A stretch of DNA of 64,000 nt from an uncultured Pelagibacteraceae bacterium. Lineage in GTDB: Bacteria; Pseudomonadota; Alphaproteobacteria; Pelagibacterales; AG-422-B15. Position 1 is the first letter of the stretch. Every line of letters starts with the position of its first letter. Position numbers and translations under genes: made by a program. Below, piece after piece: positions 1-62,692 of this stretch. The notes beneath the pieces were generated by a model that was not told the DNA's origin, ran no database searches, and saw only the letters and a program-made list of their open reading frames with translations. The stretch lies in assembly GCA_902578305.1 (NCBI GenBank), contig CACHCK010000003.1, forward strand, positions 105 to 64,104. The letters are read 5' to 3'.

Positions 1-2
1 AA

Positions 3-1133
3 CCAAATAATAATCCTGAAAATGAAGGACCTCTTGAAGAGGAAAATGAACAATTCGGATTTTATTGGGGTCCAAGTTATTACAATGACTATGCTGTCTA
101 TAGAGAAGCAACATTGCATAATGGTATATATTATTTACCAGAGGAAAATGGGCTATATAACGATCCTGGATCAGCTTATTCTGCATTCTTAGCCGCTGGA
201 GGCGGCGGCGGTGGATTAGGTGGCGGAAGCTTTTCATATCCTGGTCAAGGTACATATGGTAATGCAAACTATCGTCCTCCTTTTCAATATTCATCTCAAG
301 CAGATTATGACTCTGCAACCGCTGGCGGCTATTTGGGCTATCAAACTTTAGCTGATTATGATTCAGATACTGCCGCTAGAGGAGAAGGCGGTGGAGGAGG
401 CGGTTTTGAAACTGTATCCGAAGGCGGCGACACTGTTTATGATAGCGGAAGCGCATCTCCAATTGGAACAATGGGTGTAACTTCTTATGATCTTCTAGGT
501 GGAGATGATACGTTTGGTGAAGCAAATCTTGCTGGAAATTTCTCAGGTGGAACCTCAAGCACAGACTTCGTAGATGGAGGAAATGGCAATGATACTTTAT
601 ACGGAGGCGGTGGACTTGACGTATTGAAAGGTTCAGCTGGAACGGATGAACTACATGGTAACGCTGGAGACGATGTGTTGATCGGAGGTAATGATATCGA
701 TTTAATCTATGGAGGCAGCGGTACTAATGTTCTTGTAGGAGGAAGTTTTACAAGCGATGCAGTTATACCGGGACTACCAGGAATGCAGTTGGAAGATATG
801 AGTGCTGCAACAGTAGATGACAATGCAGCGGATATATTTGCATTTACTTCAAATGACTTTGGAACGAATCTGATAGGAACTGTAATTGCTGATTTTAACT
901 ATGGCGAAGACCAGCTTGCATTCAGTGCTGACGGTGGAACCTCCTGGTCCAACACGCCACTTGCTAGTGGAGAGCTTACTACAAATAGTAATAATTTAGG
1001 CACCGGCGAAACATGGATACTCTCTGGTACTGAATTAGCAGGAATAGACCCAGGTCTTGTATTATTTAAAATTATGGATGATCCGGGTTTGGGTGGTATT
1101 ACTGACGCCGATTTCGTTACTTTAGGCGCTTAG
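3..1133 (+). CDS. RTX-type Ca2+-binding secreted protein (5'-truncated by window edge), probable T1SS substrate
   Basis: The frame is open from position 3 (PNNNPENEGPLEEENEQFGFYW...), so the TTG at 114 is unlikely to be the real start. Acidic and Gly-rich, with six tandem GGxGxDxLx-type nonapeptides and a C-terminal DIFAF...IADFNYGEDQL segment typical of T1SS substrates. Lies directly upstream of T1SS genes. Confidence 0.85.
   Translation, partial: PNNNPENEGPLEEENEQFGFYWGPSYYNDYAVYREATLHNGIYYLPEENGLYNDPGSAYSAFLAAGGGGGGLGGGSFSYPGQGTYGNANYRPPFQYSSQADYDSATAGGYLGYQTLADYDSDTAARGEGGGGGGFETVSEGGDTVYDSGSASPIGTMGVTSYDLLGGDDTFGEANLAGNFSGGTSSTDFVDGGNGNDTLYGGGGLDVLKGSAGTDELHGNAGDDVLIGGNDIDLIYGGSGTNVLVGGSFTSDAVIPGLPGMQLEDMSAATVDDNAADIFAFTSNDFGTNLIGTVIADFNYGEDQLAFSADGGTSWSNTPLASGELTTNSNNLGTGETWILSGTELAGIDPGLVLFKIMDDPGLGGITDADFVTLGA
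576..737 (+). repeat. Six tandem RTX nonapeptide-coding repeats
   Basis: GGNGNDTLY GGGGLDVLK GSAGTDELH GNAGDDVLI GGNDIDLIY GGSGTNVLV. Confidence 0.85.
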
Positions 1134-1161
1134 GATAGAAGTTTAGCTTTTTATTACCTTC

Positions 1162-1189
1162 GCACTCTTGATTATTTTGAGTGTTTATT
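1162..1189 (+). terminator. Weak putative intrinsic terminator after the RTX gene
   Basis: gcactc-N11-gagtgt stem followed by ttatt. Confidence 0.3.
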
Positions 1190-1239
1190 AGTTATATCTT
1201 TTAATGTTGAAACGTATTATATTTCTGTAACATATTGAT

Positions 1240-2883
1240 ATGTTTGAAATTTTTAATCGATTGAAGAGGAATCCTGCTTTACTAACTAAGATTATTATTG
1301 CATCTTTCTTTGTTAATATACTAGCGCTAGCAACTCCAATATATGTCATACAAGTTTTGCAAAGGTATGTCGCTTACGGTGTTAACTCGACACTTATTAC
1401 ATTGGTCGCAGGTATCGCCTTTGTGGTGATCTTTGAATTTTTCTTTCGAAATATTCGTCATCGTATGACCAGAGAAACCGAAGCAGAAAACACAGTTCTG
1501 TCAGACAGAGTGATGAAAAAAATAGTATCAATCAAATCAAGTTTTTATGCGCTGCAAAAAAATTTTAGACCAGACATCGTTACACAAAACTTACAAACGA
1601 TTAAGAGCACCTTAAATGCAACTACAACCCTGATACTCATCGATGTCCCATTCGTTTTAATATTCTTGATTGCACTGTTTCTTATTCATTATCAACTTGG
1701 AATCATTACAACATTATTTTTAACGATACCCTTTATAGTTATAAACTTTTATAGAAAAAAAATTAACGATCTCAATCAACAGTCTTTACAAATTGGGCTT
1801 AATACAGCGAGACTTCATGACAATTCAAGTTCAAGATTTGAAAGTATCAAATATTTTAATTTAATAGAAATAGTTAAATCCGCATGGAGCTCTTTGATTA
1901 AGAAATCAATAAATGTAACTGAAGATCTTGAGGCTCAAAAAAATATTGTTGCCTCATTCATGACCTCATCATCAGCCCTTCTTACGGTTATAATTATAGC
2001 ATGGGGCGCAGTTCTTGCAGTTGATGGCGAAATTTCTGTTGGAGCGCTTATTGGTGCAAATATTCTTGCTGCCCGTGCTTTAGCTCCAATAGTCCGTTTT
2101 GTTCAAAATATTGAACCACTATATAAAGCAAATCATGCAATCAATGAACTTGCACAATTTCTAAATCTTCCACAGGATTCATCAGATGGAAATCAAATTA
2201 ATGACTTTAGTGGAAAGCTTCAAATTTCAGATTTACAATTCAAATACCCTGAAAGTAAGATTCCAATTTTTGAGGGGTTAAATATTGAAACTAAAGCAGG
2301 AGAACTGCTTGTAATCAATGGCTCCAATGGGTCTGGAAAATCTACTTTAATAAAATCTGTGATAAGATTGCTTGAATTTAATCGAGGTCAAATATTCTAT
2401 GATTCAATTGAAATAAATCAGCTTTCATTGGATTGGGTCAGAGCCAATTTGATTTACTTGCCACAGGAGCCAAAATTTGTTGATGGAACAATGCTTAATA
2501 ATCTTCTTGGGCAAAATCAGATTAAGAAAGATAAAATGACAGAAATATTAAGATCAGTTGATCTTCTTGATTTTATAAATTCAGATCCAAAAGGTATCGA
2601 TATGCCGTTTACAAATAGAGGAGAGGACCTGCCATTTGGGATTAGAAAAAGAATTGCACTAGCCAGAGCTTTGGTTATTGGTGGTAAACTCGTTGTTTTA
2701 GATGAGCCAACGGAATCAATTGACGATAGAGGTCGAAAATCAATATATAAATTAATAAATGATTTATTAAAAAATAAAAAAACTCTCATTATAGCAACAC
2801 AAGATGAGAAAATTTTAAATATTGCTGATTGCATCGTGAATCTAGATGTCAAACCGATTCCAAAAATAATTAAAAGAAAATAA
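1240..2883 (+). CDS. Type I secretion ABC transporter (permease+ATPase, no C39 domain), degenerate NBD motifs
   Basis: N-terminal TM domain (NILALATPIYVIQV typical of T1SS ABCs), Walker A GSNGSGKST, Walker B VVLDE. Signature reads LPFGI and H-loop reads ATQD. Confidence 0.9.
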   Translation: MFEIFNRLKRNPALLTKIIIASFFVNILALATPIYVIQVLQRYVAYGVNSTLITLVAGIAFVVIFEFFFRNIRHRMTRETEAENTVLSDRVMKKIVSIKSSFYALQKNFRPDIVTQNLQTIKSTLNATTTLILIDVPFVLIFLIALFLIHYQLGIITTLFLTIPFIVINFYRKKINDLNQQSLQIGLNTARLHDNSSSRFESIKYFNLIEIVKSAWSSLIKKSINVTEDLEAQKNIVASFMTSSSALLTVIIIAWGAVLAVDGEISVGALIGANILAARALAPIVRFVQNIEPLYKANHAINELAQFLNLPQDSSDGNQINDFSGKLQISDLQFKYPESKIPIFEGLNIETKAGELLVINGSNGSGKSTLIKSVIRLLEFNRGQIFYDSIEINQLSLDWVRANLIYLPQEPKFVDGTMLNNLLGQNQIKKDKMTEILRSVDLLDFINSDPKGIDMPFTNRGEDLPFGIRKRIALARALVIGGKLVVLDEPTESIDDRGRKSIYKLINDLLKNKKTLIIATQDEKILNIADCIVNLDVKPIPKIIKRK

Positions 2884-2889
2884 ATAACA

Positions 2890-4098
2890 ATGACGGATTT
2901 TGCGTTACCAGAAAAGCACAGAAAAAATACAAGGATATTATTTATCATTTTTTCGCTCTTTGCTGTGACCATTAGTTTATGGATGTTTCTGTTTAACATT
3001 GACATAATCAGTAACGCTGAAGGGCAAGTAATTCCAGCCGGTGAAGTAAAAACTGTTCAGCATCTTGAAGGGGGCATCATTGATCAAATACTTATAAAAG
3101 AAAGTGATATTGTAAAAAAAGATGATCCATTGGTCATTCTCGCTGCAACCGCAAGCGAAGTTGATGTAAATGAGGCGCAAGTTTTAATAGATGCAAAGAT
3201 TATAGAGTCAATACGTCTTGAAGCTGAGATAAATAATTTTGATGTTCCAGTATTTTCCGATGATCTCGTCAATAACAGACCTGAACTTATTAATAAATCT
3301 TTAGAGTTATTTGTTAGTAGAAAAAATAAGCTTGAAGGAGATATTAGAGAAGTAACAGCCGCAGTGGTGCAGCATCAAACAGCAATTGATATTTTGATCA
3401 AACAAACTGAAATGAGCTCTCAACTATTAGAGGAAGGGATAATAACAGAGTTTTCGCATCTTAATTTACTTAAAGAATTAAATGCTGCGAAGGGAGCCTT
3501 AGAGGCAGCTTTAGAAGAAAAAGAAAATTTAACAAAGAAATTTATTGAGGATGCAAGAAATGATAGGCAAATTGCACAAAGAGAAATTTCAGAATTAAAC
3601 GAAACAATCAAGGCACTTGAAGATAACCTAAACAGAACCATAATTACAGCTCCTGTTGATGGAGTAGTTAAAAACTTATTTTTTGTAACTATTGGTGGCG
3701 TTATAAGGCCAGGAGAAGCAATTCTGGATATTGTGCCGACTAAAGATAATTTAATAGTTGAGGCTAGACTTCAAGAAAGTGATATAGGATTTGTAAAACC
3801 TGGACAGAGTGCGGTCGTAAAGCTATCTTCAGCCGATGCTGTTAACTTTGGTCAAATAGATGGTACAGTTGAAAGAATTAGTCCCGATACTGAACAGGAT
3901 GAAAATGATAACAGAATTGTTTTCTATAATATTTTTGTTGAGTTAGACCAAAACTATTTTGAAAGTAAGGAAAAAATATATTATTTAGTTCCAGGAGTTA
4001 AAGTCACTGCAAGTATTCAAATTGGTGAACGCACACTAGCGAACTATTTATTATCTCCTTTTATTGGCTCAATGGGACAATCTTTTCAAGAAAGATAA
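2890..4098 (+). CDS. HlyD-family T1SS membrane fusion protein
   Basis: N-terminal TM, VQHLEGGII, coiled coil, ITAPVDGVV, GERTLANYLLSP. Confidence 0.92.
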   Translation: MTDFALPEKHRKNTRILFIIFSLFAVTISLWMFLFNIDIISNAEGQVIPAGEVKTVQHLEGGIIDQILIKESDIVKKDDPLVILAATASEVDVNEAQVLIDAKIIESIRLEAEINNFDVPVFSDDLVNNRPELINKSLELFVSRKNKLEGDIREVTAAVVQHQTAIDILIKQTEMSSQLLEEGIITEFSHLNLLKELNAAKGALEAALEEKENLTKKFIEDARNDRQIAQREISELNETIKALEDNLNRTIITAPVDGVVKNLFFVTIGGVIRPGEAILDIVPTKDNLIVEARLQESDIGFVKPGQSAVVKLSSADAVNFGQIDGTVERISPDTEQDENDNRIVFYNIFVELDQNYFESKEKIYYLVPGVKVTASIQIGERTLANYLLSPFIGSMGQSFQER

Positions 4099-4144: not shown

Positions 4145-4639
4145 ATGAAAATATTGATTTGTGGATTACCTGGATCCGGAAAAACATGGTTGGCTGAAAG
4201 ACTTGTTCAAAATATAGATAATTGTGCTTGGTATAATGCAGATATTGTAAGAACTGCATCAAATGATTGGGATTTTTCAAAAGAGGGTAGGTCCAGGCAG
4301 GCAATGCGAATGAAAACCTTTGCTGACTTTGAAAAAAATAATGGAAGAGATGTAATATGTGATTTTGTGGCTCCATCAAAAGCCGCGAGAGATTCTTTTG
4401 GCGCAGATTATTTAATCTGGCTTGATACAATTAAGGAAGGAAGAGTTGTAGAAAATAAAAAAAAAGAATTAGAGAGCTCCAAGGACCTTCCATTTGAAGT
4501 TGAAACACTTGAGAGTTCTCAAGCATTTAAAGACACAACCAATATGTTCGAAGCGCCTAATAATGCAAATAAAATCATTACAAGCTTCATGAATGATCAG
4601 GAAATTGCTGCACTAGCTGATGAGATAACTAATGTTTGA
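4145..4639 (+). CDS. Small P-loop kinase related to adenylylsulfate kinase (CysC-like)
   Basis: GLPGSGKT P-loop. NADIVR...DWDFSKEGR, DFVAP and FEAP parallel the CysC motifs DGDxxR, LGFSxxDR, SFISP and YEAP. Start moved to ATG 4145 to remove the overlap with hlyD. Confidence 0.7.
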   Translation: MKILICGLPGSGKTWLAERLVQNIDNCAWYNADIVRTASNDWDFSKEGRSRQAMRMKTFADFEKNNGRDVICDFVAPSKAARDSFGADYLIWLDTIKEGRVVENKKKELESSKDLPFEVETLESSQAFKDTTNMFEAPNNANKIITSFMNDQEIAALADEITNV

Positions 4640-5027
4640 TTGGAAAAAGCCAACATCTCAGATGCTTGGTCGTTGGCAACCCTGGCATAAAGGACATACG
4701 GAGCTATTTAAAAAAGCTTTCAATTTATCAGGACAAGTATGCATAATGTTTAGAGACGTCTCAGGAGTTGATGCTGGAGTTGATGGTCAATCAGATAATC
4801 CGTTTGAGTTTGAAGAAGTAAAGCGACGTATAATTAACAGTCTTGAATTAGAGGGATTTAAAAATGAGAGAGAATTTATTGTAATAAAGGTACCTAATAT
4901 AACTGATATTTCATTTGGTAGAGGGGTAGGTTACACATTTACAGAGCACGACTTAGGAGAAGAAATTCATAAAATTTCGGCAACAAAAATACGGAAAGAG
5001 ATGAGAGATAAGGAAGAATTAGCTTAA
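4632..5027 (+). CDS. Small HIGH-superfamily (cytidylyltransferase-like) nucleotidyltransferase
   Basis: GRWQPWHKGH (HxGH), DNPF, GRGVGY and ISATKIR motifs; overlaps the kinase stop by 8 nt. Confidence 0.8.
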   Translation: MFDWKKPTSQMLGRWQPWHKGHTELFKKAFNLSGQVCIMFRDVSGVDAGVDGQSDNPFEFEEVKRRIINSLELEGFKNEREFIVIKVPNITDISFGRGVGYTFTEHDLGEEIHKISATKIRKEMRDKEELA

Positions 5028-5374
5028 AATATTGTTGCCCCAAATATTTTTATTTCACCGTCTTCTGTCCCTAAAACTAATCTTCCAAGATAGTCGCCAT
5101 CTGAAATAGTACTTTTTTGTTTGAATAGCACCGTAACATGTTCGTCTCTTCTAATGCACCCGAGAAATTCATTCTCTTGTTTTAAATTTGTAATAACCTC
5201 GTTGTTTGTCCATTGTTTTGCGAGCTCAATTTCATTCGCTCCAAAAAGCATTCTTGCTGAAAAATCTTTAGTAAATCCAAAGTAATCTTGAGAATTTGAG
5301 CAAATAATTAAGTTATCCCAGAGAGGGGAAGCAATTTCTAAAATTTCTTTGTCAGATTTTTTTAGTAAATCCAT
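5024..5374 (-). CDS. Hypothetical protein (resembles DUF3887-like small proteins), coupled to aprA
   Basis: 116 aa; ATG directly follows the aprA stop (TAAATG on the minus strand). Confidence 0.7.
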   Translation of the reverse strand: MDLLKKSDKEILEIASPLWDNLIICSNSQDYFGFTKDFSARMLFGANEIELAKQWTNNEVITNLKQENEFLGCIRRDEHVTVLFKQKSTISDGDYLGRLVLGTEDGEIKIFGATIF

Positions 5375-7210
5375 TTAGTCGACAAGATTATGCATTGGAG
5401 CCTTATTCATACTGAATTCACCTGTTTCCCTGTCTCTTTGTGAAACCGTCAAACAGTGCCAATTAGCATCATCAATTTTCATGTGATCACCACGATAATA
5501 ATAGCCAGGCCACCGTGTTTCTTCCCTAAATAATGTATGACTCGTTACACACTGAGAAGTGGTAACTCTATGCTTTAATTCCCAAGCTCTCATTAGTTGG
5601 TGATAATCTTCTGCAGCTACATGCTCTAAATCTTCTTCAAGCATCTTTAGGAGGTTAGTCCCAATTTTTAATAAATTATCATTTGTCATATATGAAACCC
5701 CAACACCGCCTACGTATTCATCCATGATTTTTTGTAAACGTTGAAGCCCTTGAATTGGAAGAATATAGCTTGGCGATACTGTGCCGGCAGTAATTTCGTT
5801 TCTTCCTACTTTATAATTTTCAAGAGGTTTGTAGATTACTTCTTTTAAATCTTCGTATTGTTTATCAGTAACTTTAATTTCTTCATTTCGCATATCATTT
5901 ACGTATTTTACAGCAGCTTTTGCTGCAAGACGTCCCTCAGTAAATGATCCTGAGGAAAACTTATGCGCACTTCCACCAACTGTATCTCCTGCTCCAAACA
6001 AACCATTGACACTTGTCATCCTGTTGTATCCCCAGAAATAATCGCTTGGTGAAATATCCTCTGGACCACTCACCCAGGCTCCGGAACAAGTAGCGTGTGA
6101 GCCCATTACATACGGTTCGGATGTAGTAAGTTCAGGATTAGTATATTTTGGGTCAATGTTCTGAGATGCCCATACGACTGCTTGACCAACAGTCATACCA
6201 AGAAAGTTCTCCCAGCCAACTGTTTCCATGTGAGGATCTTGAAATGCTTCTTTGGTAACCATGTGAATAGGGCCACGTCCAGCTTTTACCTCTTCAATAA
6301 ATGCATGGTTTCTTAAGCAAGTTGGCACAGGGACATGATCAATATATTCGCCTACAAGTTTTTTAGTTTCTTCGTACCATTTTTTTTCATAATTCTCCCC
6401 ATTACCATTTTCTGTATAAGTCTTGAGATGTAAAAAATAAGCACCCACTGGCCCGTAACCATCTTTAAATCTTGTCAGAACTATTCTATTTTCCATTTGT
6501 GTCATTTTTGCTCCAGCCATAATAGGAAGAGCGTATGCTGAGCCATTACTCCATGGTGCATACCAAGTCCTTCCCATTCCTTCACCAACAGCTCTTGGTT
6601 TGAAAATATGAGATGCTCCTCCTGCAGCCACAATAACTGCTTTGGCTTTAAAAACATGGTAATTTCCTGTTCGCATATTGAAACCTACAGCTCCGCCCAC
6701 TCGGTCAGATTTACTTTCATCCATGAGAAGATGAGTAATCATTATTCTATTGTAAATTTTATCAGCTGATTTTTTTGCGGCTTCAGCTACAATGGGTTTA
6801 TAACTTTCACCGTGGATCATTATCTGCCATTTGCCTTCCCTTTGGTACCTGCCGGTTTCTTTGTCTCGCATGATTGGTAATCCCCATTCATCAAACATAT
6901 GAACAGTAGAATCAACATGTCTTGCGATATCGTATGTAAGATCCTCTCTAACTAAACCCATAAGGTCATTTCTGGCATATCGAACATGATCTTCTGGTTG
7001 GTTTTCATTCCATTGCATTCCCATATAGCAATTTATAGCGTATAGTCCTTGAGCTACTGCACCGCTTCGATCAATATTTGCTTTTTCAACACATACTATT
7101 TTAAGATCTCTGCCCCAATGTCTTGCTTCAAAGGTAGCTCCTGTTCCAGCCATTCCACCGCCGACAATGAGAATGTCACAATCCTCATGAATTGTTTTAA
7201 TTGAAGCCAT
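5375..7210 (-). CDS. aprA: Adenylylsulfate (APS) reductase alpha subunit
   Basis: GGGMAG FAD motif, RSGAVAQGLYAIN, WQIMIHGESYK, EETRWPGYYYRGD. Confidence 0.97.
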   Translation of the reverse strand: MASIKTIHEDCDILIVGGGMAGTGATFEARHWGRDLKIVCVEKANIDRSGAVAQGLYAINCYMGMQWNENQPEDHVRYARNDLMGLVREDLTYDIARHVDSTVHMFDEWGLPIMRDKETGRYQREGKWQIMIHGESYKPIVAEAAKKSADKIYNRIMITHLLMDESKSDRVGGAVGFNMRTGNYHVFKAKAVIVAAGGASHIFKPRAVGEGMGRTWYAPWSNGSAYALPIMAGAKMTQMENRIVLTRFKDGYGPVGAYFLHLKTYTENGNGENYEKKWYEETKKLVGEYIDHVPVPTCLRNHAFIEEVKAGRGPIHMVTKEAFQDPHMETVGWENFLGMTVGQAVVWASQNIDPKYTNPELTTSEPYVMGSHATCSGAWVSGPEDISPSDYFWGYNRMTSVNGLFGAGDTVGGSAHKFSSGSFTEGRLAAKAAVKYVNDMRNEEIKVTDKQYEDLKEVIYKPLENYKVGRNEITAGTVSPSYILPIQGLQRLQKIMDEYVGGVGVSYMTNDNLLKIGTNLLKMLEEDLEHVAAEDYHQLMRAWELKHRVTTSQCVTSHTLFREETRWPGYYYRGDHMKIDDANWHCLTVSQRDRETGEFSMNKAPMHNLVD

Positions 7211-7214
7211 CTAT

Positions 7215-7679
7215 TTAGTTGATTCCTTTTTGATTATCTTTCTTTAGACTTGGAAGACCTGTATCAATATTCAGTCCATTTGGTTCTGAGTATAGTAACT
7301 GTGAATTTACTTCTTCATTTGTTGGGGGAGCTTCATCTGCAAGTTTTGGAATATGCTTTCCCCAAGGTTTAGTTGTAATAGGCGAAACAAAATTTTTCTC
7401 GTGACCATTTCGAAATTTAATTCTCCAAGATATCGTACCTTTTTCCTCTTCACGTAAAACTCTCACCTTATGATGCATTGGCGCAAAATCAGCATATCCT
7501 CTCGCATCAATAGCATTCTGTGGACAGGCCTTTACACAAGAATAGCATTCCCAACACATGTTAGGCTCTATATTCACTGCACGTCTTGTTTCTTTATCTA
7601 TATGCATAATGTCTGATGGACATATATCCACGCAATGACCACAACCATCGCATCTTGTCATGTATACAAATGTTGACAT
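7215..7679 (-). CDS. aprB: APS reductase beta subunit (2x[4Fe-4S])
   Basis: CDGCGHCVDICP and CWECYSCVKACP, RGYADFAP. Confidence 0.97.
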   Translation of the reverse strand: MSTFVYMTRCDGCGHCVDICPSDIMHIDKETRRAVNIEPNMCWECYSCVKACPQNAIDARGYADFAPMHHKVRVLREEEKGTISWRIKFRNGHEKNFVSPITTKPWGKHIPKLADEAPPTNEEVNSQLLYSEPNGLNIDTGLPSLKKDNQKGIN

Positions 7680-7718
7680 ATATATTCCTCTTCTAGTTTC
7701 CTAGTAAATCAGTTTTTA

Positions 7719-8507
7719 TTAATAATGCCTAGGCGATTCTCGTTTAATTCCAAGCCCAAATTGTTTTGGTGCATCAGCTGGGGCAGGCAAGTCATCTCTA
7801 AAACCGTCTGCTTCAGATAGATTCTTCTGAATCGCTGCACCTGGCTTATAAAACATATGAGCAAATTTCGACCAATAAACACCACCAAACAATATAATAT
7901 TAGATATGCCAAAGAGCACTAAAAACAAAGTATCCAGTATTGGAATTTCTGATGACTGAGTAAATGACCAGGCTAATCCAAATGTTGCTGCAGCTAAAAG
8001 TGATAACACAAAAAGATCTGCTCTTATTATTCTATTCCATGGATTTGCTTCAGCAGAGACATCTACCCTTAAGAAAAACCAAAACCAATAACCTCCTAGA
8101 CAAGTCATTATAGCGCCAACATGCCATAACAATGAAAGTTGATGAGGAGCGGATGAATCAGCATATCCAAATATTAAGACAACAGAAGCAACCCAAAATA
8201 ATATAGAGCCATACATACCTAAAAGATGAGCAACTCTTCTTTGACCGCTACCTAATTCTGAAGTTGTTAGAATGTCGCTTGCAATTGTCTTGCTTACAAT
8301 TTTTGCTTTTTGAGAACCACTCAATTCATTTGTTGCAGACGCTTTTGCTCTTTTAAAATTAATGAAAAAATATTTTGCATTTTTCTTATGCGCCATATCC
8401 ACTAAAGTACCTATTGCAACCATCAGTATCATGACAACTACAAAGCCTTGTAACGCAATAGCGGGCACAAAAGTCATGAGTTCTTCAAAAGGATTTATAT
8501 AAATCAT
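7719..8507 (-). CDS. aprM: APS reductase membrane anchor
   Basis: Multi-TM protein upstream of aprBA; AHLLGMYG, WSKFAHMFYKP. Confidence 0.88.
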   Translation of the reverse strand: MIYINPFEELMTFVPAIALQGFVVVMILMVAIGTLVDMAHKKNAKYFFINFKRAKASATNELSGSQKAKIVSKTIASDILTTSELGSGQRRVAHLLGMYGSILFWVASVVLIFGYADSSAPHQLSLLWHVGAIMTCLGGYWFWFFLRVDVSAEANPWNRIIRADLFVLSLLAAATFGLAWSFTQSSEIPILDTLFLVLFGISNIILFGGVYWSKFAHMFYKPGAAIQKNLSEADGFRDDLPAPADAPKQFGLGIKRESPRHY

Positions 8508-8560: not shown

Positions 8561-9496
8561 TCAAGGCAGAAGATTAGACTCAAAACTATTATATAATTGT
8601 CTCAAATTTGAAACTTTTTGAATATCTTCTCTGAGATTTTTTGTGCCAGAGTCAATTGTATCTGAATTGAATTCGATAATACAGCTACTAAAGCTCTCAC
8701 GATTTTTTAAACGGGAATAGTAGTCTCTTAAATTGTCTAATTTCTCAGTGAATAGCTCAACCAGATTGACCTCATCAAGTCTGTGTAATAGTGTCATCCA
8801 GGTTATGTCTGCAATACTAAACTTATCCCCGTCAATCCAAATCTTATTCTCTAAATGACCATCTAATGATGTCAAATGTAATTTAAGATTCTCAAATGCC
8901 TTTACAGCAACTCTTTGATGTGGAGATTTTTTATTAAAGACTGAGTAGCCTAATAGTCGATATAAAGTAAAATTAAGCGCTCTAAACTTTGAAGGATGCT
9001 TTATAAAATAATTAAAAAATTTAAATAAACTAATTTTTCTAAGCATAGAAACAAACAATGGTTGAGTAAGTAACGATATGCAATTACCTGCGTACTCTTT
9101 TATTCCACTAACTGGGTCATCTCCTACTAACGAACCCTTTTTATTCCAATAGTCAACTGTTTCACTCTCCCCAAGTTTATTTGGAAAAGTTTCCATTAAA
9201 TATCTTATTTGTTCGTGAGACTCATAAATAGGCTGATTGTTATGTAATAGAACTGGTACTGTTGCTTTTGGATTAATTTTAAGAAAATCTTTTGATAAAT
9301 TTTCACAATCTTTTGTCTCAATAATATGTATATGAACAGGAAAATAATTAATTTTATATTCTTCAAGACATATTCTTACTTTACGAGAGCAAAGTGAGAA
9401 GTTGTTATGATAAAGCACCCATTCAGAATTTGAGTCTGATACTTTATATTTTTGTTTACCGATAAGATCTTTGTTTTTAGGACTCTTTTTCTTCAT
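8561..9496 (-). CDS. Glutathione S-transferase family protein (PcpC/LinD/GDAP1-like, long insertion)
   Basis: LYHNNFSLCSRKVR, INPKATVPVL, IYES, GDKFSIADI. Confidence 0.85.
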   Translation of the reverse strand: MKKKSPKNKDLIGKQKYKVSDSNSEWVLYHNNFSLCSRKVRICLEEYKINYFPVHIHIIETKDCENLSKDFLKINPKATVPVLLHNNQPIYESHEQIRYLMETFPNKLGESETVDYWNKKGSLVGDDPVSGIKEYAGNCISLLTQPLFVSMLRKISLFKFFNYFIKHPSKFRALNFTLYRLLGYSVFNKKSPHQRVAVKAFENLKLHLTSLDGHLENKIWIDGDKFSIADITWMTLLHRLDEVNLVELFTEKLDNLRDYYSRLKNRESFSSCIIEFNSDTIDSGTKNLREDIQKVSNLRQLYNSFESNLLP

Positions 9497-9848
9497 CCCA
9501 TACTTTGTTTAGCAATTGACTGGCTGAAACCGCTGTAGGAAAACCACTATAGTGAGCCACATGCAATATCATTTCTTCAATTTTTTCTTTCGTAATTCCT
9601 AAATTTTTAGCCCCTCTTAAATGAGATTTTAATTCATTCTCTCTATTAAGCGCTACCAAAACGGTGAGCGTAATCATGCTTCTTTCTTGAAGCGATAACT
9701 GCTCAGTTCGTGACCAGATTGTTCCATACAACATATCAATTATTTGCTTTAGCAAATCTTTAGAGACAGGAGTTTCATCGTTTTTAAGTAAATCCATCTT
9801 CTTCAGGATTTCTAATCCTTTTTTTCTATCTTGATCGTCTAATGGCAT
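9477..9848 (-). CDS. Carboxymuconolactone decarboxylase (CMD/PcaC-like) family protein
   Basis: YGTIWSR...ERSMITL...ELKSHLRGA...HYSGFP. Confidence 0.85.
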   Translation of the reverse strand: MPLDDQDRKKGLEILKKMDLLKNDETPVSKDLLKQIIDMLYGTIWSRTEQLSLQERSMITLTVLVALNRENELKSHLRGAKNLGITKEKIEEMILHVAHYSGFPTAVSASQLLNKVWDEEKES

Positions 9849-9878
9849 TTTTATATTTTACTCCTTAATATCAGTGTT

Positions 9879-11489
9879 TCAATTAAATTCAATTTTCTCT
9901 TTAATATTCAATAATACATTATTAATAATAGTTTCAAGACTATCGCTTTTATCAAAGTTAAATAAATCGAAAACATATTTATCAGGTCTTAAGATAATTC
10001 CAGAGCAATCAAACTTTTCACAGTAGATTTGTAAATCTTTATGAGTCTCTTCACACGCAATGTATCCCTCATAGTTTGAGTGGTCGTAATTGGGAGTTAT
10101 ATTTATGATCTTAAAATTATGACTTTTTAATAGTTCAAGATTGTCCTCTGAGATATTTTTATTACCTTCAAAATTATTTAAAATAATTCCAAAATTCTTT
10201 TTCAGTACATAATCTGTACTCATAATCCTGCCATCATGAAGACGAACATTTATCTCATTGAAGTAGTATCTCTCTATAGAAACATTCTTAATTTTTGGCA
10301 TTTTATGAGCGCCAGGTCCTAAACGGTTACCATTTAAAACAGGAAATATATTTTCTTTACCTCTTAAGTAACTTTGTGTTCTTAGCAATGCATTCCTGAT
10401 GAATGCTTTAAATTTACTTTTAGCATTAATGATGCCTCCCATTTTAATTGCCCCTCTAGTAATTCGTGCGACGTGCGGCCTTCTTTCTGATTGGTAGGTA
10501 TCTAATATTTTAGGCGAGTAAAGTCCCTTTAGTACGCCGTTAATTTTCCACAATATATTTTCAGCATCCCTACATCCAGAATTCATTCCTTGACCCATAA
10601 AAGGAGGCATTTGATGAGCAGCGTCACCGAGTAGAAAAATGTTTTCATTTTGCCATTTAACAGCATCAGCTGCATGAAATGAGTAAACTGCTGTTCTGCT
10701 AAATTCAACTTCATTATCTCCGATCCATTGGTCTATGTATTTTCTAAAAACCTCCTCTTTTTGAATTTCATCAACAGTATCACCTGGCATAAAGGCTATT
10801 TCAAATCTAAAGCAATCATCAACTCCTTGAATAATTGTTGTTGGTCGTGATGGATTGCAATATTGAATCGCATCAATATCTGTGAAACAGTCAAATTTAT
10901 TTTTAGTATACCCGTCTACCACCATCCAGGTCTCATCAGCATCTAAACTTTTAAGATCAATATTGTTGAGCTTTCGAATTGTACTATTTGCTCCATCGCA
11001 CGCCAAAAGATACTTACTGTTTGTTTTAAACTCTTCCCCGGTTTCAATATTCTTGTAGAAACAATTCACAATGCCATCTGATTGATTAACATTTAAAATT
11101 TCATAACCTGCTCTAATCGTATTCGTATTATACTTTTTTGCATTTTCTCTATGCGCTTCATCAAATTGAGGTTGATGAATGAATAGTATTGAATGTTGGT
11201 AATTATACGTATCAAACCCATCCATCGTAATTTTTAAAATTGATCTTTTTTTTGCATCTTTGTTATCAACGCCTCTAATTTTTCTCGTCTTTACATCAGT
11301 TAGAAAATTGCAATGAGTCATTGCTCGTTGGCATTCAGCATCCCATGTAATTGCTCTGGGCAAGGGGAAGGTTTCTTTTTCTTTCTCTAAGATTAACGCT
11401 TTAATGCCATAATACCCTAGCAAGTTTGCGCAAGTTTCACCCACTGGTCCATAACCTGCTACAATCACATCATATTCAGTATCACTCAC
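9879..11489 (-). CDS. FAD-dependent aromatic hydroxylase (MhpA/PcpB-like)
   Basis: GYGPVG, ACDGANS, GDAAHQMPPFMGQGMNSG, C-terminal LRPDKYV; GTG start. Confidence 0.88.
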   Translation of the reverse strand: MSDTEYDVIVAGYGPVGETCANLLGYYGIKALILEKEKETFPLPRAITWDAECQRAMTHCNFLTDVKTRKIRGVDNKDAKKRSILKITMDGFDTYNYQHSILFIHQPQFDEAHRENAKKYNTNTIRAGYEILNVNQSDGIVNCFYKNIETGEEFKTNSKYLLACDGANSTIRKLNNIDLKSLDADETWMVVDGYTKNKFDCFTDIDAIQYCNPSRPTTIIQGVDDCFRFEIAFMPGDTVDEIQKEEVFRKYIDQWIGDNEVEFSRTAVYSFHAADAVKWQNENIFLLGDAAHQMPPFMGQGMNSGCRDAENILWKINGVLKGLYSPKILDTYQSERRPHVARITRGAIKMGGIINAKSKFKAFIRNALLRTQSYLRGKENIFPVLNGNRLGPGAHKMPKIKNVSIERYYFNEINVRLHDGRIMSTDYVLKKNFGIILNNFEGNKNISEDNLELLKSHNFKIINITPNYDHSNYEGYIACEETHKDLQIYCEKFDCSGIILRPDKYVFDLFNFDKSDSLETIINNVLLNIKEKIEFN

Positions 11490-11494
11490 GCGAC

Positions 11495-12388
11495 TTAGTA
11501 TGCAGGTGTATCTTCTGGCTCTTCAATAACTTTATTGTTAATGAAGCCCAGTTTTTCAATTTCTATTTTAATTTCGTCACCTGCTTTAAGCCAATTTCTT
11601 GTCGTCACTGCAGAACCAGCCGGTGTACCAGTTGGAATTAAGTCTCCAGGTTCTAGAGTAAATGCGGTCGATAAATACTCAACTAGTGTATAACAGTCAA
11701 AAATTAAATCACTTGTTGAGGCAGATTGTCTTAATTCACCATTTACGAACGTTTCAAGTTTAAGGTCATGTGGATCGTCAACTTCATCGCTGGTCACAAT
11801 ATAAGGACCAAACGGACAATGAGTGTCCCATGACTTACCCATAGTCATTGTCATAGGAGGACCACGCATCTGCCAATCTCTGATTGTAACGTCGTTAACG
11901 ACCGTATAGCCGTAAATAACTCCAGCTGCTTTGTCATAAGGTACATGACGACATTTTTTTCCAATAATGAAACCAAGTTCGCCCTCATAATCTAAAAATT
12001 CTGAAGCACGCGGCCGATGAATATCATTGTATGGACCGTTAACGGAGCTATTTTGTTTGTTAAAAATATTAGGATATTTCTCTTGAGCTTTACCTATTGT
12101 TTTTGCAGCTGTTTGCGCAACTTCATCCTTATGTTCTTTATAGTTCAATCCAACTGCAAGAATTTTACTTGGTTTAATAATAGGAGCTTCTAAATGTACT
12201 TTGCTTAACTCAATTTTATTTTCACTATTATCAATAAGGTTTTTTGCTGTATCTAGACCCTGTTCTCCAAGAGCGATAAAATCTATCATGTTGATGGGTA
12301 ATGAACTATTTGAAAAATCCACTATATGGTCTCCATTTATTGCGCCTATGGATGTAGTGCCATTAAATGTAAAAGTAACTAATTTCAT
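11495..12388 (-). CDS. Fumarylacetoacetate hydrolase family protein
   Basis: VGLNY, LDYEGEL, NDVTIRD, GKSWDT, TGTPAG. Confidence 0.92.
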   Translation of the reverse strand: MKLVTFTFNGTTSIGAINGDHIVDFSNSSLPINMIDFIALGEQGLDTAKNLIDNSENKIELSKVHLEAPIIKPSKILAVGLNYKEHKDEVAQTAAKTIGKAQEKYPNIFNKQNSSVNGPYNDIHRPRASEFLDYEGELGFIIGKKCRHVPYDKAAGVIYGYTVVNDVTIRDWQMRGPPMTMTMGKSWDTHCPFGPYIVTSDEVDDPHDLKLETFVNGELRQSASTSDLIFDCYTLVEYLSTAFTLEPGDLIPTGTPAGSAVTTRNWLKAGDEIKIEIEKLGFINNKVIEEPEDTPAY

Positions 12389-12462
12389 AAAACTAAATCA
12401 ATAAATATCTAAAAGCTGGATTTGTAACAAGTTTAAATAATGTATATTATTTTATCATATAT

Positions 12463-14166
12463 ATGAAGAAATCTATATCAAGACGCTCTTTTATTAAAAA
12501 GTCTGCAGCCTCAATTGCTTTAGGCGGTCTTGCATCTATCTTACATTTTCAAAATGCGCCAGCCTATATTAAGCCTAAGAATTATAATATTTTATTAATA
12601 TTAAATGATCAGGAGAGGGCATGGCCATATATTCCAAAAAGCATTGATTTGCCAGCGCGCAGGTACTTGGAGAGTGTCTCAACCTATTTCAATAGATCCT
12701 ATACCTCAACACCAATATGTTCACCTGCACGTAGCTCTGTTTATACTGGGCAGCATGTTCAATTCACTGGTGTATGGGATAATACGGTAACCCCTTGGGT
12801 TCCAGGTTTATACGATAATGTAAATACAATAGGCCATCTTTTAAAAAATCAAGACTACGAAACAGGTTATTTTGGCAAATGGCACTTAACAAATATTACT
12901 GAAAGTAACGTAAATGAAAATGCTCTCGGATATGAAGGCATGAAAAAAATGTTTTCAAAATATGGTTTTGATAATTCAGATCAACCAGGTGAGCGTGATT
13001 TAGGGCAGGGAGGTTTTAAATTTGATGGCTTGACTGCTGAGTCTGCATCAAATTTTATCAGAGATAAAAAAGGAAATGAAAAGCCTTGGTCTGTATTTGT
13101 AAATTTTGTCAATCCTCACGATATAATGTTTTTCAGGGCATCTTCTGAAATATTGGGTACAGGATTTGTTGGTGAAAATCAAAAATTTGCACCAGATGAT
13201 CCATTATATAAAAAAGAACACGATTTTGATTTTCCTAAAAATTTCGGTCCAAGATTAATAGGCACAGATGACTTTGGAACTGAGATCATGAATACGGTGT
13301 ATGGTGAAATCTCATACGATCGACCAGATTTATGGAGAAATTTTTGTAATTACTATTTCAACTGCTTACGTGATGTTGATAGGCGTATGATGAAACTTAT
13401 TCATTCTCTTGAGGAGACTGCTCAAATGGATAACACAATTATCTTTATGATCTCTGATCATGGAGAAATGCTTGGACAACAGGGGTCGCGCGGAAAAATA
13501 GTTTCTTGGGAAGAGTCTATCAGAGTTCCTACTCTTGTTTACCACCCAGATCTGAAAGATAAAAAATTGTGTAACTCAGTAATATCAAATATTGATATTG
13601 TTCCGACATTATTAGAATTTACAGGTCTTAGTAAATCTGAACTTAGAGATAAGCACCCTGAATTAAAAGGTAACAGCTATGCGGAGTTGGTTGAAAATGT
13701 CAACTACGACAATATACGTGATAAAGAAGGCCATCTAATTCATGGAGTTCAAATTATACCTGCGGTTTTTGAGGTCGCTGAAAAATTTCGACTTACTGGA
13801 CTTGCTGAAGGTTTTTATGAAAAAACAAAAGCATTTATGACTAGGGGCAATTTTTTGCCAGATTTTGCACCGCCCCTTAATTACAAAGGCGTTGTGGACA
13901 AAAAGTATAAATTTTTAAGATTTTTTTCACCTCGTCAAAATAACATACCGTCAAACTTTGATGAATTGACTAAATACAATTCAGACTATCAATTATATGA
14001 TTTAGAAAAAGATCCATTTGAAATGAATGATTTGGCAAAAGATGAAAATAATAGAAAATTACTAATGTCTATGAATGATAAATGCAATAGACTTGCAGAC
14101 AAAGAAATTGGTTTGGAAAATCATGTCATTCACTTACCTGGCCCCGATTGGTTTTGGACTGTTTAA
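12463..14166 (+). CDS. Tat-exported formylglycine-dependent sulfatase
   Basis: SRRSFIKK Tat motif, NILLILNDQ, CSPARSS (CxPxR), GKWHL, NPHD, SDHG. Confidence 0.9.
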   Translation: MKKSISRRSFIKKSAASIALGGLASILHFQNAPAYIKPKNYNILLILNDQERAWPYIPKSIDLPARRYLESVSTYFNRSYTSTPICSPARSSVYTGQHVQFTGVWDNTVTPWVPGLYDNVNTIGHLLKNQDYETGYFGKWHLTNITESNVNENALGYEGMKKMFSKYGFDNSDQPGERDLGQGGFKFDGLTAESASNFIRDKKGNEKPWSVFVNFVNPHDIMFFRASSEILGTGFVGENQKFAPDDPLYKKEHDFDFPKNFGPRLIGTDDFGTEIMNTVYGEISYDRPDLWRNFCNYYFNCLRDVDRRMMKLIHSLEETAQMDNTIIFMISDHGEMLGQQGSRGKIVSWEESIRVPTLVYHPDLKDKKLCNSVISNIDIVPTLLEFTGLSKSELRDKHPELKGNSYAELVENVNYDNIRDKEGHLIHGVQIIPAVFEVAEKFRLTGLAEGFYEKTKAFMTRGNFLPDFAPPLNYKGVVDKKYKFLRFFSPRQNNIPSNFDELTKYNSDYQLYDLEKDPFEMNDLAKDENNRKLLMSMNDKCNRLADKEIGLENHVIHLPGPDWFWTV

Positions 14167-14169
14167 TAT

Positions 14170-14862
14170 ATGAAAGATAATGTAATATTAAATTTTGATT
14201 TATATAAAAAATATAAATCAGAACATGCCCCAGACAGTTTTCATCATGTTGCTTTTAAAACTCAAAATTATGATGCAATGGTCGAATTTTATGAAAAACT
14301 TTTTGGTTGTAAGCCAATGTACAAAAGCAATGATATTGCTTTTTTGGCTTTTGATGAGGAGCATCATCGTATTGCAATTGCAAACACTGAACCAGGAGTA
14401 AAGAAATTAGGATTTATTTCGAAGATTATATTAGCATTTAGAAATTGGCTTAATAAAAATATTCCAACAACTATTGGGCTGGATCATATCTCTTATTGTC
14501 TTAACCCAATCGATAAATGGTTTGATTTTTATCATAAGGCAAAAGATAGAGGTCTTGAGCCTTACTGGACAATCAATCATGGATGGATAACGGGCATGTA
14601 TTACAAAGATCCAGACGGTAATCTTGTAGAACTATTTTTTGAGCATTGGACAAATGATGAAGAATATAAAAATGAAATTTCTGCTAGAGGTTTTCCTGAA
14701 GAGCCAGTAGGTACGAATATGGATATCGATATACTCTATCAAATGTACAAAAACGGTGAATCACTAAAAAATTTAACAAAAAAAGGAAACACAGTTCCAG
14801 AGGGTAAGAAGCCAGTTGCGGGAATTCAGGCCGCTATCAATATGCGTAAAAAATTTAAATAA
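14170..14862 (+). CDS. VOC/glyoxalase-superfamily protein, extradiol dioxygenase-like
   Basis: [37 protein letters not shown]. Confidence 0.8.
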
Positions 14863-14866
14863 TTAT

Positions 14867-15382
14867 ATGGATCTTTATGATCAAAATCTTATTCCAAGAA
14901 TAATATTTACTGTCATATCAGTTGTATTAACTATAGGACCCACTATTGCTGATTTTAATAAAACGCATGCAACTCATCCTGATTGGACAGGGCACGCTCG
15001 CTTTCATGTGGTTTGGCAAGTCTTAGGTTTTTATCCGATAATGATATTAAATTTAATTGTTCTATGGATCAATATTTCAAACTTTTACTATCCATATCAG
15101 TTATTCTTTTGGCTTTTCTGGTATGTTGGCTTTGTAGGTTCTTTTTTGATTACATTATTGAGCATGCCATTATTTAAAGGCAAATTGTCTGACCCTGGAG
15201 GAAGAACACCTTTTTTGTATACATTCGGAAGGAAATTTAAATTTTTACCTGGTAAGGATAAACACTTACCCTTCAAGATAAATGGAGAAGTGAAGACCTA
15301 CAAAGTAGATGAAAACTTGCACAATTTAGTTCTACCTTCAATAATTGTCATTATAACTTCTATTTATTTTATAGTTCTATAA
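14867..15382 (+). CDS. Membrane protein (DUF6640-like)
   Basis: [24 protein letters not shown] plus TM helices; start moved to ATG 14867. Confidence 0.65.
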
Positions 15383-15394
15383 AAGAGCATATTC

Positions 15395-26593: not shown

Positions 26594-28372
26594 ATGACTA
26601 AAATGACGACAGAAGAAGCATTCGTAAAAGTTTTGCAAAAACACGGTATACAGCACGCATTTGGAATAATTGGATCTGCATTCATGCCAATTTCCGATTT
26701 ATTTCCAAAGGCAGGTATTACTTTCTGGGATGTAGCTCATGAAAATAATGGCGGTATAATCGCAGACGGCTATACAAGAGCGACAGGAAAAATGTCTATG
26801 TGCATTGCACAAAATGGCCCTGGCATTACTAACTTTGTTACGCCAATAAAAACTGCATACTGGAATCACACTCCAATGCTTCTAGTTACTCCACAAGCGG
26901 CAAATAAAACTATAGGACAAGGTGGCTTTCAGGAAGTAGAACAAATGGCATTGTTTAAAGATATGGTTTGCTACCAGGAGGAAGTGAGGGATCCTACTAG
27001 AGTTGCCGAAGTACTAAATCGAGTAATTTCAAAAGCATTCAAAGGTTCTGCTCCAGCACAAATAAATATTCCTCGCGATATGTGGACACAAGTTATAGAT
27101 ATCGAGTTACCGCCAATAATAAAATTTGAAAGACCATCAGGAGGAATCGAAGCAATAAAAGAAGCGGCAAAACTTCTATCTAATGCTGACTTTCCAGTAA
27201 TATTATCAGGAGCTGGAGTGGTCTTAGCTGATGCAATCAATGACTGCAAAGCTTTAGCTGAAAAATTAGACTCACCTGTTGCTTCTGGCTATCAACATAA
27301 TGATAGTTTTCCAGGTAGTCATCCACTTGCAGTGGGGCCTTTAGGTTATAACGGCTCAAAAGCTGCTATGGAGTTAATTTCTAAAGCAGACGTTGTTCTT
27401 GCCTTAGGGACTAGACTAAACCCATTTTCAACATTACCTGGTTACGGAATAGATTATTGGCCAAAAGATGCAACTATTATTCAGGTTGATATAAATTCTG
27501 ATAGAATTGGATTAACAAAAAAAGTTTCAGTAGGTATATGCGGTGATGCAAAACAAGTTGCTCAGCAATTATTACGTAGTCTTTCTCCTGAAGCGGGAAA
27601 CAAAAATAGAGATGAGAGAAAAGCTCTAATTCATCAAACCAAATCTGCTTGGTTACAAACATTGAGTAGTATGGATCATGAAGATGACGATCCTGGAACA
27701 TCATGGAATGAGGAAGCTAGAGTAAGAGATGCAGATCGCATGTCTCCTCGCATGGCTTGGAGGGCTATACAGAATGGCTTACCAAAAAATGCAATAATTT
27801 CATCCGACATAGGCAATAACTGCGCAATAGGAAATGCTTATCCAACATTTGAAGAAGGTAGAAAATATTTAGCTCCAGGTCTTTTTGGACCTTGCGGTTA
27901 TGGCTTCCCTTCAGTTTTAGGTGCTAAAATAGGCTGTCCAAATATTCCTGTTGTTGGTTTTGCTGGAGATGGAGCTTTTGGCATAAGCATGAATGAAATG
28001 ACATCTTGCGCTAGGGAAGAATGGCCTGCAATTACAATGGTGATATTTAGAAACTATCAGTGGGGCGCCGAAAAAAGAAATTCGATATTATGGTATGACA
28101 ATAATTTCGTTGGTACCGAACTAGATCCAGAATTAAGCTACGCAAAAGTCGCAGAAGGCTGTGGATTGAAGGGTGTTATAGTTAAAACCATGGATGAGTT
28201 GACAAATTCACTCAGAACTGCGTGTGAAGAACAGTCAAATGGAGTTACAACTTTTATTGAGGTTATTTTAAATCAAGAACTTGGAGAACCTTTCAGACGA
28301 GATGCAATGAAAAAACCAGTTGAAGTTGCCGGCATCAATCCTGATGACATGAGTCAAGAGCAACACGGTTAA
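26594..28372 (+). CDS. xsc: Sulfoacetaldehyde acetyltransferase
   Basis: MTTEEAFVKVL..HGI.HAFGIIGSAFM, TPP motif GDGAFG...NYQWGAEK, ELGEPFRRDAMKKP. Confidence 0.95.
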   Translation: MTKMTTEEAFVKVLQKHGIQHAFGIIGSAFMPISDLFPKAGITFWDVAHENNGGIIADGYTRATGKMSMCIAQNGPGITNFVTPIKTAYWNHTPMLLVTPQAANKTIGQGGFQEVEQMALFKDMVCYQEEVRDPTRVAEVLNRVISKAFKGSAPAQINIPRDMWTQVIDIELPPIIKFERPSGGIEAIKEAAKLLSNADFPVILSGAGVVLADAINDCKALAEKLDSPVASGYQHNDSFPGSHPLAVGPLGYNGSKAAMELISKADVVLALGTRLNPFSTLPGYGIDYWPKDATIIQVDINSDRIGLTKKVSVGICGDAKQVAQQLLRSLSPEAGNKNRDERKALIHQTKSAWLQTLSSMDHEDDDPGTSWNEEARVRDADRMSPRMAWRAIQNGLPKNAIISSDIGNNCAIGNAYPTFEEGRKYLAPGLFGPCGYGFPSVLGAKIGCPNIPVVGFAGDGAFGISMNEMTSCAREEWPAITMVIFRNYQWGAEKRNSILWYDNNFVGTELDPELSYAKVAEGCGLKGVIVKTMDELTNSLRTACEEQSNGVTTFIEVILNQELGEPFRRDAMKKPVEVAGINPDDMSQEQHG

Positions 28373-62212: not shown

Positions 62213-62692
62213 ATGAGTAGAACTGGCATATATCCTGGAAGCTTTGATCCCATTCATAAAGGGCACATTGATATTATCAATAGGGCTACAAAACTTGTTG
62301 ATAAATTATATATCGCAGTTGCTGACAGCCCGCATAAATCACCTTTATTTGATTTAGATGAAAGAAAAGAAATGATAGAAAATGAGTTTTCATCAAATGA
62401 TAAAATTGAAGTAATTGCATTTGATAATTTATTGATTGATTTAGCTAATTCGCTAGATGCAAAGATACTCATAAGAGGTCTTCGTGTAGTTTCGGATTTT
62501 GAATATGAGTTTCAGATGTTGGGTATGAATAGACAATTAGATAATAATATTGAAACAGTATTCTTGATGGCAGACGCTCAACGGCAATCAATTTCCTCTA
62601 ATTTTGTAAAAGAAATTGCACGTTTGGGAGGAAATATCAGTAATTTTACAAATAAGTTTGTTGAGCAAAAATTAAAAGATAAATTTAAATAA
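62213..62692 (+). CDS. coaD: Phosphopantetheine adenylyltransferase
   Basis: YPGSFDPIHKGH, RGLR, DFEYE, ISS. Confidence 0.96.
   Translation: MSRTGIYPGSFDPIHKGHIDIINRATKLVDKLYIAVADSPHKSPLFDLDERKEMIENEFSSNDKIEVIAFDNLLIDLANSLDAKILIRGLRVVSDFEYEFQMLGMNRQLDNNIETVFLMADAQRQSISSNFVKEIARLGGNISNFTNKFVEQKLKDKFK

Follow-up and report, generated by a model that had tools for sequence, protein, structure and literature searches.

The fate of adenosine 5'-phosphosulfate (APS) in bacteria that possess adenylylsulfate reductase (AprBA) without an ATP sulfurylase gene is the question raised by a 64,000-nucleotide stretch of DNA (hereafter the window; contig CACHCK010000003.1, positions 105 to 64,104, assembly GCA_902578305.1) from an uncultured Pelagibacteraceae bacterium. 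In the window, an apr operon faces two overlapping genes, which encode an APS-kinase-like protein (KIN) and a small nucleotidyltransferase (NT). We propose that KIN and NT probably form a split mini synthase of 3'-phosphoadenosine 5'-phosphosulfate (PAPS), and that NT would in addition convert the APS made by Apr into ATP and sulfate. The excerpted text of PMC5069961 states that cysDNCHIJ and sat are missing from SAR11, in which AprBA is believed to detoxify sulfite, and that of PMC12636525 counts aprAB among the most strongly conserved SAR11 core genes, under strong purifying selection, with pathways incomplete. Since AprBA occurs without sat or cysDN, the fate of APS in SAR11 has been left open. 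The genes of the locus are as follows (window coordinates; lengths in amino acids, aa).

4145..4639, plus strand: KIN, lid-less APS-kinase-like P-loop kinase, 164 aa (PF01583, PDB matches, phrog_10255)
4445..4525, plus strand: charged insertion of 27 residues in KIN (residues 101-127), at the position of the CysC lid (alignment)
4632..5027, plus strand: NT, HIGH-fold nucleotidyltransferase of the NMN adenylyltransferase (NMNAT) branch, 131 aa; predicted ATP sulfurylase
5024..5374, minus strand: orf116, uncharacterised protein of 116 aa; its gene follows aprA as the fourth of the apr operon
5375..7210, minus strand: aprA, adenylylsulfate reductase alpha subunit (TIGR02061, 992 bits)
7215..7679, minus strand: aprB, adenylylsulfate reductase beta subunit (TIGR02060, 192 bits)
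7719..8507, minus strand: aprM-like membrane anchor, 262 aa (position; weak TcuB/QmoC matches; excerpted text of PMC2211403)

A first-pass annotation, made from the sequence alone, had described an overlapping kinase and nucleotidyltransferase pair convergent on apr. This arrangement was confirmed, and the two genes overlap by 8 nt. The pair had also been said to abut aprA; orf116, which that annotation overlooked, lies in between, and its stop overlaps that of NT by 4 nt in convergent orientation. The aprA and aprB products pass their NCBIfam cut-offs (642 and 136 bits, respectively). The 262-aa membrane protein has only weak NCBIfam matches (TcuB/QmoC); it was named aprM because of its position and because aprM accompanies lineage I apr in the excerpted text of PMC2211403.

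We then analyzed the gene content of the host genome (1.24 Mb, 34 contigs, 94.56% complete), the host being taken as SAR11-type. The absence of sat that had been claimed for the window extends to this genome: no match to Sat (PF01747) or to the GalT type (PF01087) was found in it, nor any CysD, as both PF01507 matches read as TilS and GuaA. KIN is its sole PF01583 match. The host possesses cysQ (contig C1, over its cut-off), and an orthologue of a TPR-sulfotransferase is split by the assembly gap between contigs C25 and C32, the catalytic domain falling in the gap; the same sulfotransferase was found in 5/5 complete relatives. The genome also encodes CoaD, a NadD-like protein, a protein that we take to be RibF-like from its sequence, and two further HIGH-domain proteins. 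Two genes elsewhere in the window bear on the function of the pair.

26594..28369, plus strand: xsc, sulfoacetaldehyde acetyltransferase, likely the sulfite source for AprBA (TIGR03457, 962 bits against a cut-off of 676)
62213..62689, plus strand: coaD, canonical (TIGR01510, 197 bits against a cut-off of 103)

Since coaD is canonical, the job of phosphopantetheine adenylyltransferase (PPAT) is already filled. The small contigs C23 and C34 (50-53% GC, against 33% GC for the genome) may be rRNA or contamination.

The gene content of sister genomes was compared with respect to NT. In the host family, cysD was found in 7 of the 22 genomes without NT and in none of the 38 with NT (Fisher p 4e-4, a value overstated by kinship). 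Likewise, in a set of 80 genomes, cysD occurs in 7/40 NT-less and 0/40 NT-bearing genomes. An exclusion of Sat by NT was not seen in this set (2/40 vs 3/40), in which the sat genes sit in polysaccharide-type islands. The site of the swap is delimited by a marker gene on each side, the left one being part of a secretion gene pair.

1240-4098, plus strand: hlyB-hlyD
2890..4098, plus strand: HlyD-type secretion gene, left slot marker, outside the module (Pfam; synteny)
8561..9496, minus strand: glutathione S-transferase-like (GST) gene, right slot marker (Pfam; its orthologue precedes cysD-cysNC in genomes G057, G033, G036 and G038)

Genome G057 belongs to the same genus, is 99% complete and has neither NT nor aprA. 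Its slot between GST and hlyD is occupied by a PF03601 membrane gene, a 490-aa CysD and a 612-aa CysN-CysC. G036 has the same gene order, and in addition retains a KIN remnant at the old position, between the upstream genes and cysNC (L552:2405-2525; 39 codons, 72% amino acid identity, 77.5% nucleotide identity over 120 nt, P-loop damaged). The slot order in G036 and its KIN remnant thus show that the KIN-NT-apr block was replaced here by cysD-cysNC. In G033 and G038, GST-cysD-cysNC is followed by ilvD, and the contig of G027 is too short to tell. The replacing system, CysD plus CysN-CysC (NodPQ), shares with the pair the chromosomal slot, and in the genomes searched its presence and that of NT exclude each other. 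In contrast, its fold is unrelated (PP-loop plus GTPase) and it measures about 1100 aa, against 295 aa for KIN-NT. The CysD proteins of the host family carry a conserved N-terminal extension of about 190 aa, which has no Pfam match (L223:7686-9155, L224:7991-9460, L225:7864-9354, L226:8401-9885).

Fusions also connect the two proteins. KIN and NT both map to one phage family, phrog_10255, and the two genes are the split form of a widespread kinase-nucleotidyltransferase fusion of about 250 aa. Longer homologues numbered 1823, and among the matches listed these are mostly 250-290 aa with PF01583. KIN accompanies NT in 157 of 160 viral loci and is fused to it in 78 of them; in genomes, KIN adjoins NT in 78/80 loci. 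Members of phrog_10255 such as Xylella phage Sano gp35 belong to the same family in the fused form; unlike the annotation proposed here, they are annotated only as kinase or hypothetical, with no function given to the C-terminal half. Ten of the 11 plasmid matches of NT are haloarchaeal, and nine of these ten are fused to an annotated CysC. The one haloarchaeal CysC-NT fusion tested scored 160.3 with TIGR00455, which passes the cut-off of 138.7, and its CysC bears the lid. In 4/4 haloarchaeal plasmids viewed (L184-L187), a sulfotransferase, the CysC-NT fusion and a YqcI/YcgG gene follow one another in this order; this unit is likely a small sulfated-metabolite pathway.

The eleventh plasmid match is from a Microvirga nod cluster, which contains, in order, nodC, nodI, nodJ, a sulfotransferase (presumably nodH, by position), KIN-NT, CysD and CysN. 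This CysN ends in DUF2061 instead of a kinase domain. The kinase half of the fusion keeps 18 of 19 conserved columns. In the NT half, 10 of 33 conserved columns differ, including G21, P57, R97 and R121, which are 99% conserved. Decay of NT beside an intact KIN is what would be predicted, in this single case, if KIN stands in for the absent CysC and CysDN makes NT redundant.

Sulfotransferase genes also lie near NT in other loci. NT was found in 9 of 401 Alphaproteobacteria, six of which lie outside SAR11 and have long frames (one of these genomes, G568, is unpublished); a sulfotransferase lies within about 3 kb in 3/5 of the non-SAR11 loci examined. A sulfotransferase motif was detected within 5 kb in 25/160 viral loci, against 0/80 and 0/54 control loci, and in 9/80 short metagenome loci. 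The corresponding tblastn counts were 48/160 against 0/80 and 3/54; we quote the motif count in preference because the tblastn queries were partly drawn from the same loci. When 12 viral sulfotransferase candidates were scanned, eight matched sulfotransferase Pfams and four matched nothing. DUF2061 is found at the pair in 29/160 viral loci, often between KIN and NT (e.g. L152:2192-2410), and fused to CysN in Microvirga (L188:9758-11344); it is possibly an accessory of sulfate activation.

We analyzed the association of NT with apr over 301 sampled genomes of the order Pelagibacterales, one of them unpublished (G159), on which no claim rests. NT is present in 243. In the host family, NT occurs in 38/60 genomes and aprA in 37/60, the mismatch being a contig that ends inside aprA; since the genes are adjacent, this agreement is not independent. 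In family f2, both NT and aprB are present in 213 genomes, neither in 29, NT only in 17 and aprB only in 22 (n=281), and the genes are unlinked there (325 vs 378 kb in G116; 775 vs 403 kb in G148). Genera g3, g5, g7, g8 and g11 have neither NT nor aprB, and in g10, NT is found in 3/5 and aprB in 0/5 genomes. The neighbours of unlinked pairs are enoyl-CoA hydratase, a sulfur transporter (PF04143), SBP56 and homocysteine methyltransferase, presumably a C1 and methyl-sulfur setting.

Among the 80 genome loci, linkage to apr is conserved in 44, convergent as in the window in 34 and divergent in 10, and, as stated above, no canonical sat was found in the host. Neither of these two genomic results is thus of the kind that the first-pass annotation had named as refuting its proposal. 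The other 36 loci lack apr; the order in 35 of these is cysQ-KIN-NT or cysQ-NT, with xsc nearby. In G067 and G094, KIN is beside apr and NT is with cysQ. The first-pass annotation had suggested for the pair a role tied to Apr. However, the pair is not confined to Apr: among 44 further genomes with NT, 34 have no aprA match (completeness not given), genus g10 has NT without aprB, and both phages and apr-less cysQ operons carry the pair. A dedicated Apr module was therefore ruled out. Directly upstream of the apr-linked kinase in G067 and G094 is a membrane gene (L240:6649-7557 and L241:10495-11400, respectively), which presumably resembles TauE sulfite exporters; it has no NCBIfam match at 1e-40. 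Some 30 loci (L102:6398-12016 and similar) have HisD-like, SnoaL, bicupin and MetE-like genes after NT. One metagenome-assembled genome (G063) contains three frameshifted apr-KIN-NT copies (L061-L063), probably through strain mixing or assembly error.

KIN was next compared with known kinases. Its PF01583 score is 30.2 bits against a cut-off of 21.1, covering only profile positions 5-91 of 152, whereas with TIGR00455 it fails (23.4 against 138.7), as it does with every NCBIfam CysC cut-off. It matches phrog_10255 over positions 2-113. The best PDB sequence matches are APS kinases, and the P-loop, DxxR, FSxxxR and FxxP motifs are present (alignment to 2yvu; conserved columns). KIN very likely makes PAPS from APS. 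The RDxKGxY lid is absent from the KIN family and present in the haloarchaeal fusions. The first-pass annotation had read the charged segment as standing in place of the lid; the 27-aa segment is there and the lid is not, but the alignment shows it to be an insertion specific to this lineage, the family being normally lid-less. In 160 loci, 12 of them unparsed, the 27-aa insertion was found in 39 apr-linked loci and one other, whereas the insertion length is 0 aa in 33 apr-less bacterial and 73/80 viral loci and 11 aa in two viral loci. Its tracking of apr linkage (80 loci), and KIN standing alone beside apr in G067 and G094, prompted us to consider the insertion as an Apr-docking device. This was not adopted: Pelagibacter kinases (135 aa), encoded in genomes with aprB, lack it, and its carriers are close kin.

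The model of NT is a single domain of 131 aa with the HIGH nucleotidyltransferase fold. The ESM Atlas labels it only 'cytidyltransferase-like'. NT possesses the GRxQPxHxGH and SxTxxR motifs of archaeal/NadM NMNATs. Its GRWQPWHKGH corresponds residue for residue to the NMNAT motif GRFQPFHxGH (1f9a, 2qjt), whereas in the Sat alignment motif TRNxPHxxH the Arg is one position closer to the first His. All of the motifs that the first-pass annotation had aligned with Sat are present in NT. However, the first is in the NMNAT register, and NT lacks the (Q/H)(T/S)RNxPHxxH motif of Sat; the sole possible Sat-like touch is GR(D/G)VGY, compared with VGRDHAG of Sat (family consensus GRDVGY, GRGVGY in the window). 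In hhalign against a Sat profile of four rows, the probability was 4.4% with ISATKIR the only matched block. The NT profile found no Sat among PDB sequences at E up to 10, and NT has no PF01747 match. It has no N-terminal PUA-like domain; Sats from relatives carry PF14306. In both the sequence and fold rankings, NMNAT and PPAT stand above Sat. Thus, judged by sequence and modelled fold, NT is not a cut-down Sat and sits with the NMNATs. In a FastTree of 98 NT domains, the window clade joins split viral forms (support 0.80), apart from the Pelagibacter forms; no direction of transfer is claimed.

The functional proposal of the first-pass annotation, an APS kinase with a tiny ATP sulfurylase as a split mini PAPS synthase, gains support from the replacement, the fusions, the co-occurrence and the degenerate Microvirga copy. 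For NT itself, the exclusion and replacement of cysD, the fusions, the Microvirga decay and the co-occurrence with aprB argue for an ATP sulfurylase function. The proposal is also favoured by the cysQ and sulfotransferase neighbours, and by the separate genes for CoaD, the NadD-like and the RibF-like protein. We consider it quite likely that NT interconverts ATP plus sulfate and APS plus pyrophosphate (PPi).

It is known that Xsc releases sulfite, that AprBA interconverts sulfite plus AMP and APS, that sulfotransferases use PAPS, and that CysQ turns adenosine 3',5'-bisphosphate (PAP) into AMP. Every reaction and direction in the following scheme is one that we infer for the pair and its partners. 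In the host, taurine would yield sulfite through Xsc, and AprBA would use AMP to oxidise this sulfite to APS. Part of the APS would be turned by KIN into PAPS, on which the TPR-sulfotransferase would draw; the PAP left over would be recycled to AMP by CysQ. An exit from APS to sulfate is needed because APS would merely be cycled if there were no other enzymes than KIN and CysQ, and no candidate but NT was found for it. NT running in reverse may discharge surplus APS to sulfate with a gain of ATP, a role that Sat plays in sulfur oxidisers. KIN-NT would run forwards in phages, in haloarchaea and in bacteria without apr.

The pair resembles PAPS synthases and Sat-APS kinase fusions (human PAPSS1, 1x6v; Aquifex, 2gks) in uniting an APS-kinase domain and a HIGH-fold adenylyltransferase, and in its sulfotransferase and CysQ partners. 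The kinase is N-terminal in human PAPSS, as in KIN-NT. Unlike these enzymes, KIN-NT totals only about 250 aa, NT has no PUA-like domain, PF01747 match or QxRN motif, and KIN has no lid. With the Sat of the sat-aprMBA locus (sulfur oxidisers, Apr lineage I), NT has in common that a HIGH-fold adenylyltransferase is encoded next to aprMBA and that the genome possesses sulfite-releasing Xsc. In contrast, NT is convergent or divergent to apr and not co-transcribed with it, is unlinked in Pelagibacter, and occurs in apr-less genomes and phages. On balance, we lean towards NT being a third, independently evolved ATP sulfurylase family of about 125 residues that arose from NMNATs. It would be the missing Sat of SAR11, through which AprBA could take sulfite from organosulfur compounds on to sulfate with a substrate-level gain of ATP, and with the lid-less kinase it would form the smallest PAPS synthase, found in hundreds of marine phages, haloarchaea and soil bacteria.

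The alternative that survives best keeps KIN as a true APS kinase and gives NT another APS reaction, namely phosphorolysis to ADP and sulfate like that of adenylylsulfate:phosphate adenylyltransferase (APAT), or hydrolysis, with no APS synthesis. Linkage to aprBA, the lack of a Sat or GalT-type gene and the non-Sat fold all fit it. However, the 34 NT genomes without an aprA match, the phages and the haloarchaeal sulfotransferase operons would then have no source of APS: of the aprA-unmatched NT genomes tested, 13/15 have no Sat and 15/15 no CysD. Furthermore, HxGH and SxTxxR are NTP-binding motifs. We regard this alternative as unlikely.

A second alternative takes NT as an NMN/NaMN adenylyltransferase and KIN as a kinase of nucleosides or of the NAD type. 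The two would make up a small NadR-like pair for salvage, found near sulfur genes for historical reasons. In sequence and in fold, NT is indeed best matched by NMNATs, one homologue is named NMN adenylyltransferase in a source, and the pair is common in phages. Nevertheless, NT fails the NCBIfam NMNAT models (NF002243, 27.2 against 127; TIGR01527, 19.2 against 181.2), is 35-50 residues shorter than archaeal/NadM NMNATs (1f9a, 1ej2, 2qjt, 2qjo), and differs from these in an invariant Arg at residue 41, in GRxVGY and in its APS-kinase-like partner. In NMNATs, the helix after strand 3 carries the nicotinamide-stacking residue; in the NT model, a helix appears to be missing between strand 82-87 and the GRGVGY loop (residues 87-110). 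The host has a separate NadD-like gene, and the best PDB matches of KIN are APS kinases, not NadR. As salvage would leave the cysD-cysNC replacement, the fusion to canonical CysC and the decay beside CysDN unexplained, it is quite improbable.

There is a similarly small chance that the group activated by the pair contains no sulfur and is destined for surface glycans; a nucleotide of a sugar phosphate, phosphonate or phosphoramidate would be formed and subsequently 3'-phosphorylated. Campylobacter Cj1415, which is said to 3'-phosphorylate a glycan-donor nucleotide, would be the model. The bacterial neighbours, however, are cysQ, aprBA, xsc, genes for dimethylsulfoniopropionate (DMSP) and C1 metabolism, and sulfotransferases, not glycan genes, and the swap with cysD-cysNC also speaks against it. 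The descent of NT from the Sat catalytic domain, which the first-pass annotation had suggested and which concerns origin and not function, is very improbable and was rejected on the hhalign, PDB profile, motif register and fold results given above.

If the proposed ATP sulfurylase function of NT is true, a 131-aa enzyme would close the route from taurine-type sulfite to sulfate and give the most abundant heterotrophs of the ocean an additional step that yields ATP. An entire family would then escape the current ATP-sulfurylase models, and among the viral genes taken for 'cysC-only' there may be some that encode complete PAPS systems. In the titles and abstract openings of the literature, no description of the pair as an ATP sulfurylase was found; supplements may annotate these genes. 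The terms 'adenylyl', 'cysC' and 'PAPS' were not found in the SAR11 Genome Atlas preprint. In the flattened text of Table 3 in PMC5069961, the five strains listed with cysC are also those listed with aprA, and HIMB59 is listed with cysD; judging from this text, that cysC would be KIN.

As for the remaining genes near the locus, orf116 has no Pfam match. Its ESM Atlas clusters are unnamed, and the nearest named ones (DUF4019/DUF4864) are below 0.9. It adjoins aprA in the loci examined, even where NT sits elsewhere (G067, G094), and is possibly an Apr accessory subunit. Contigs of marine RNA runs cover KIN and NT in 4/4 runs; such contigs cannot show transcription, strand or level, and were not used as evidence. 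Positions 1-4098, a frequent contig end, contain the end of a glycine-rich repeat protein and a type I secretion ABC/HlyD pair. A functional tie of KIN-NT to these secretion genes was rejected, since the region is hypervariable among relatives (46-94% identity) and is missing from other lineages. Positions 8561-17565, conserved in the genus, contain genes for GST, carboxymuconolactone decarboxylase, FAD monooxygenase, FAA hydrolase, sulfatase and glyoxalase-fold proteins, and look like a catabolic island for aromatic or sulfated compounds.

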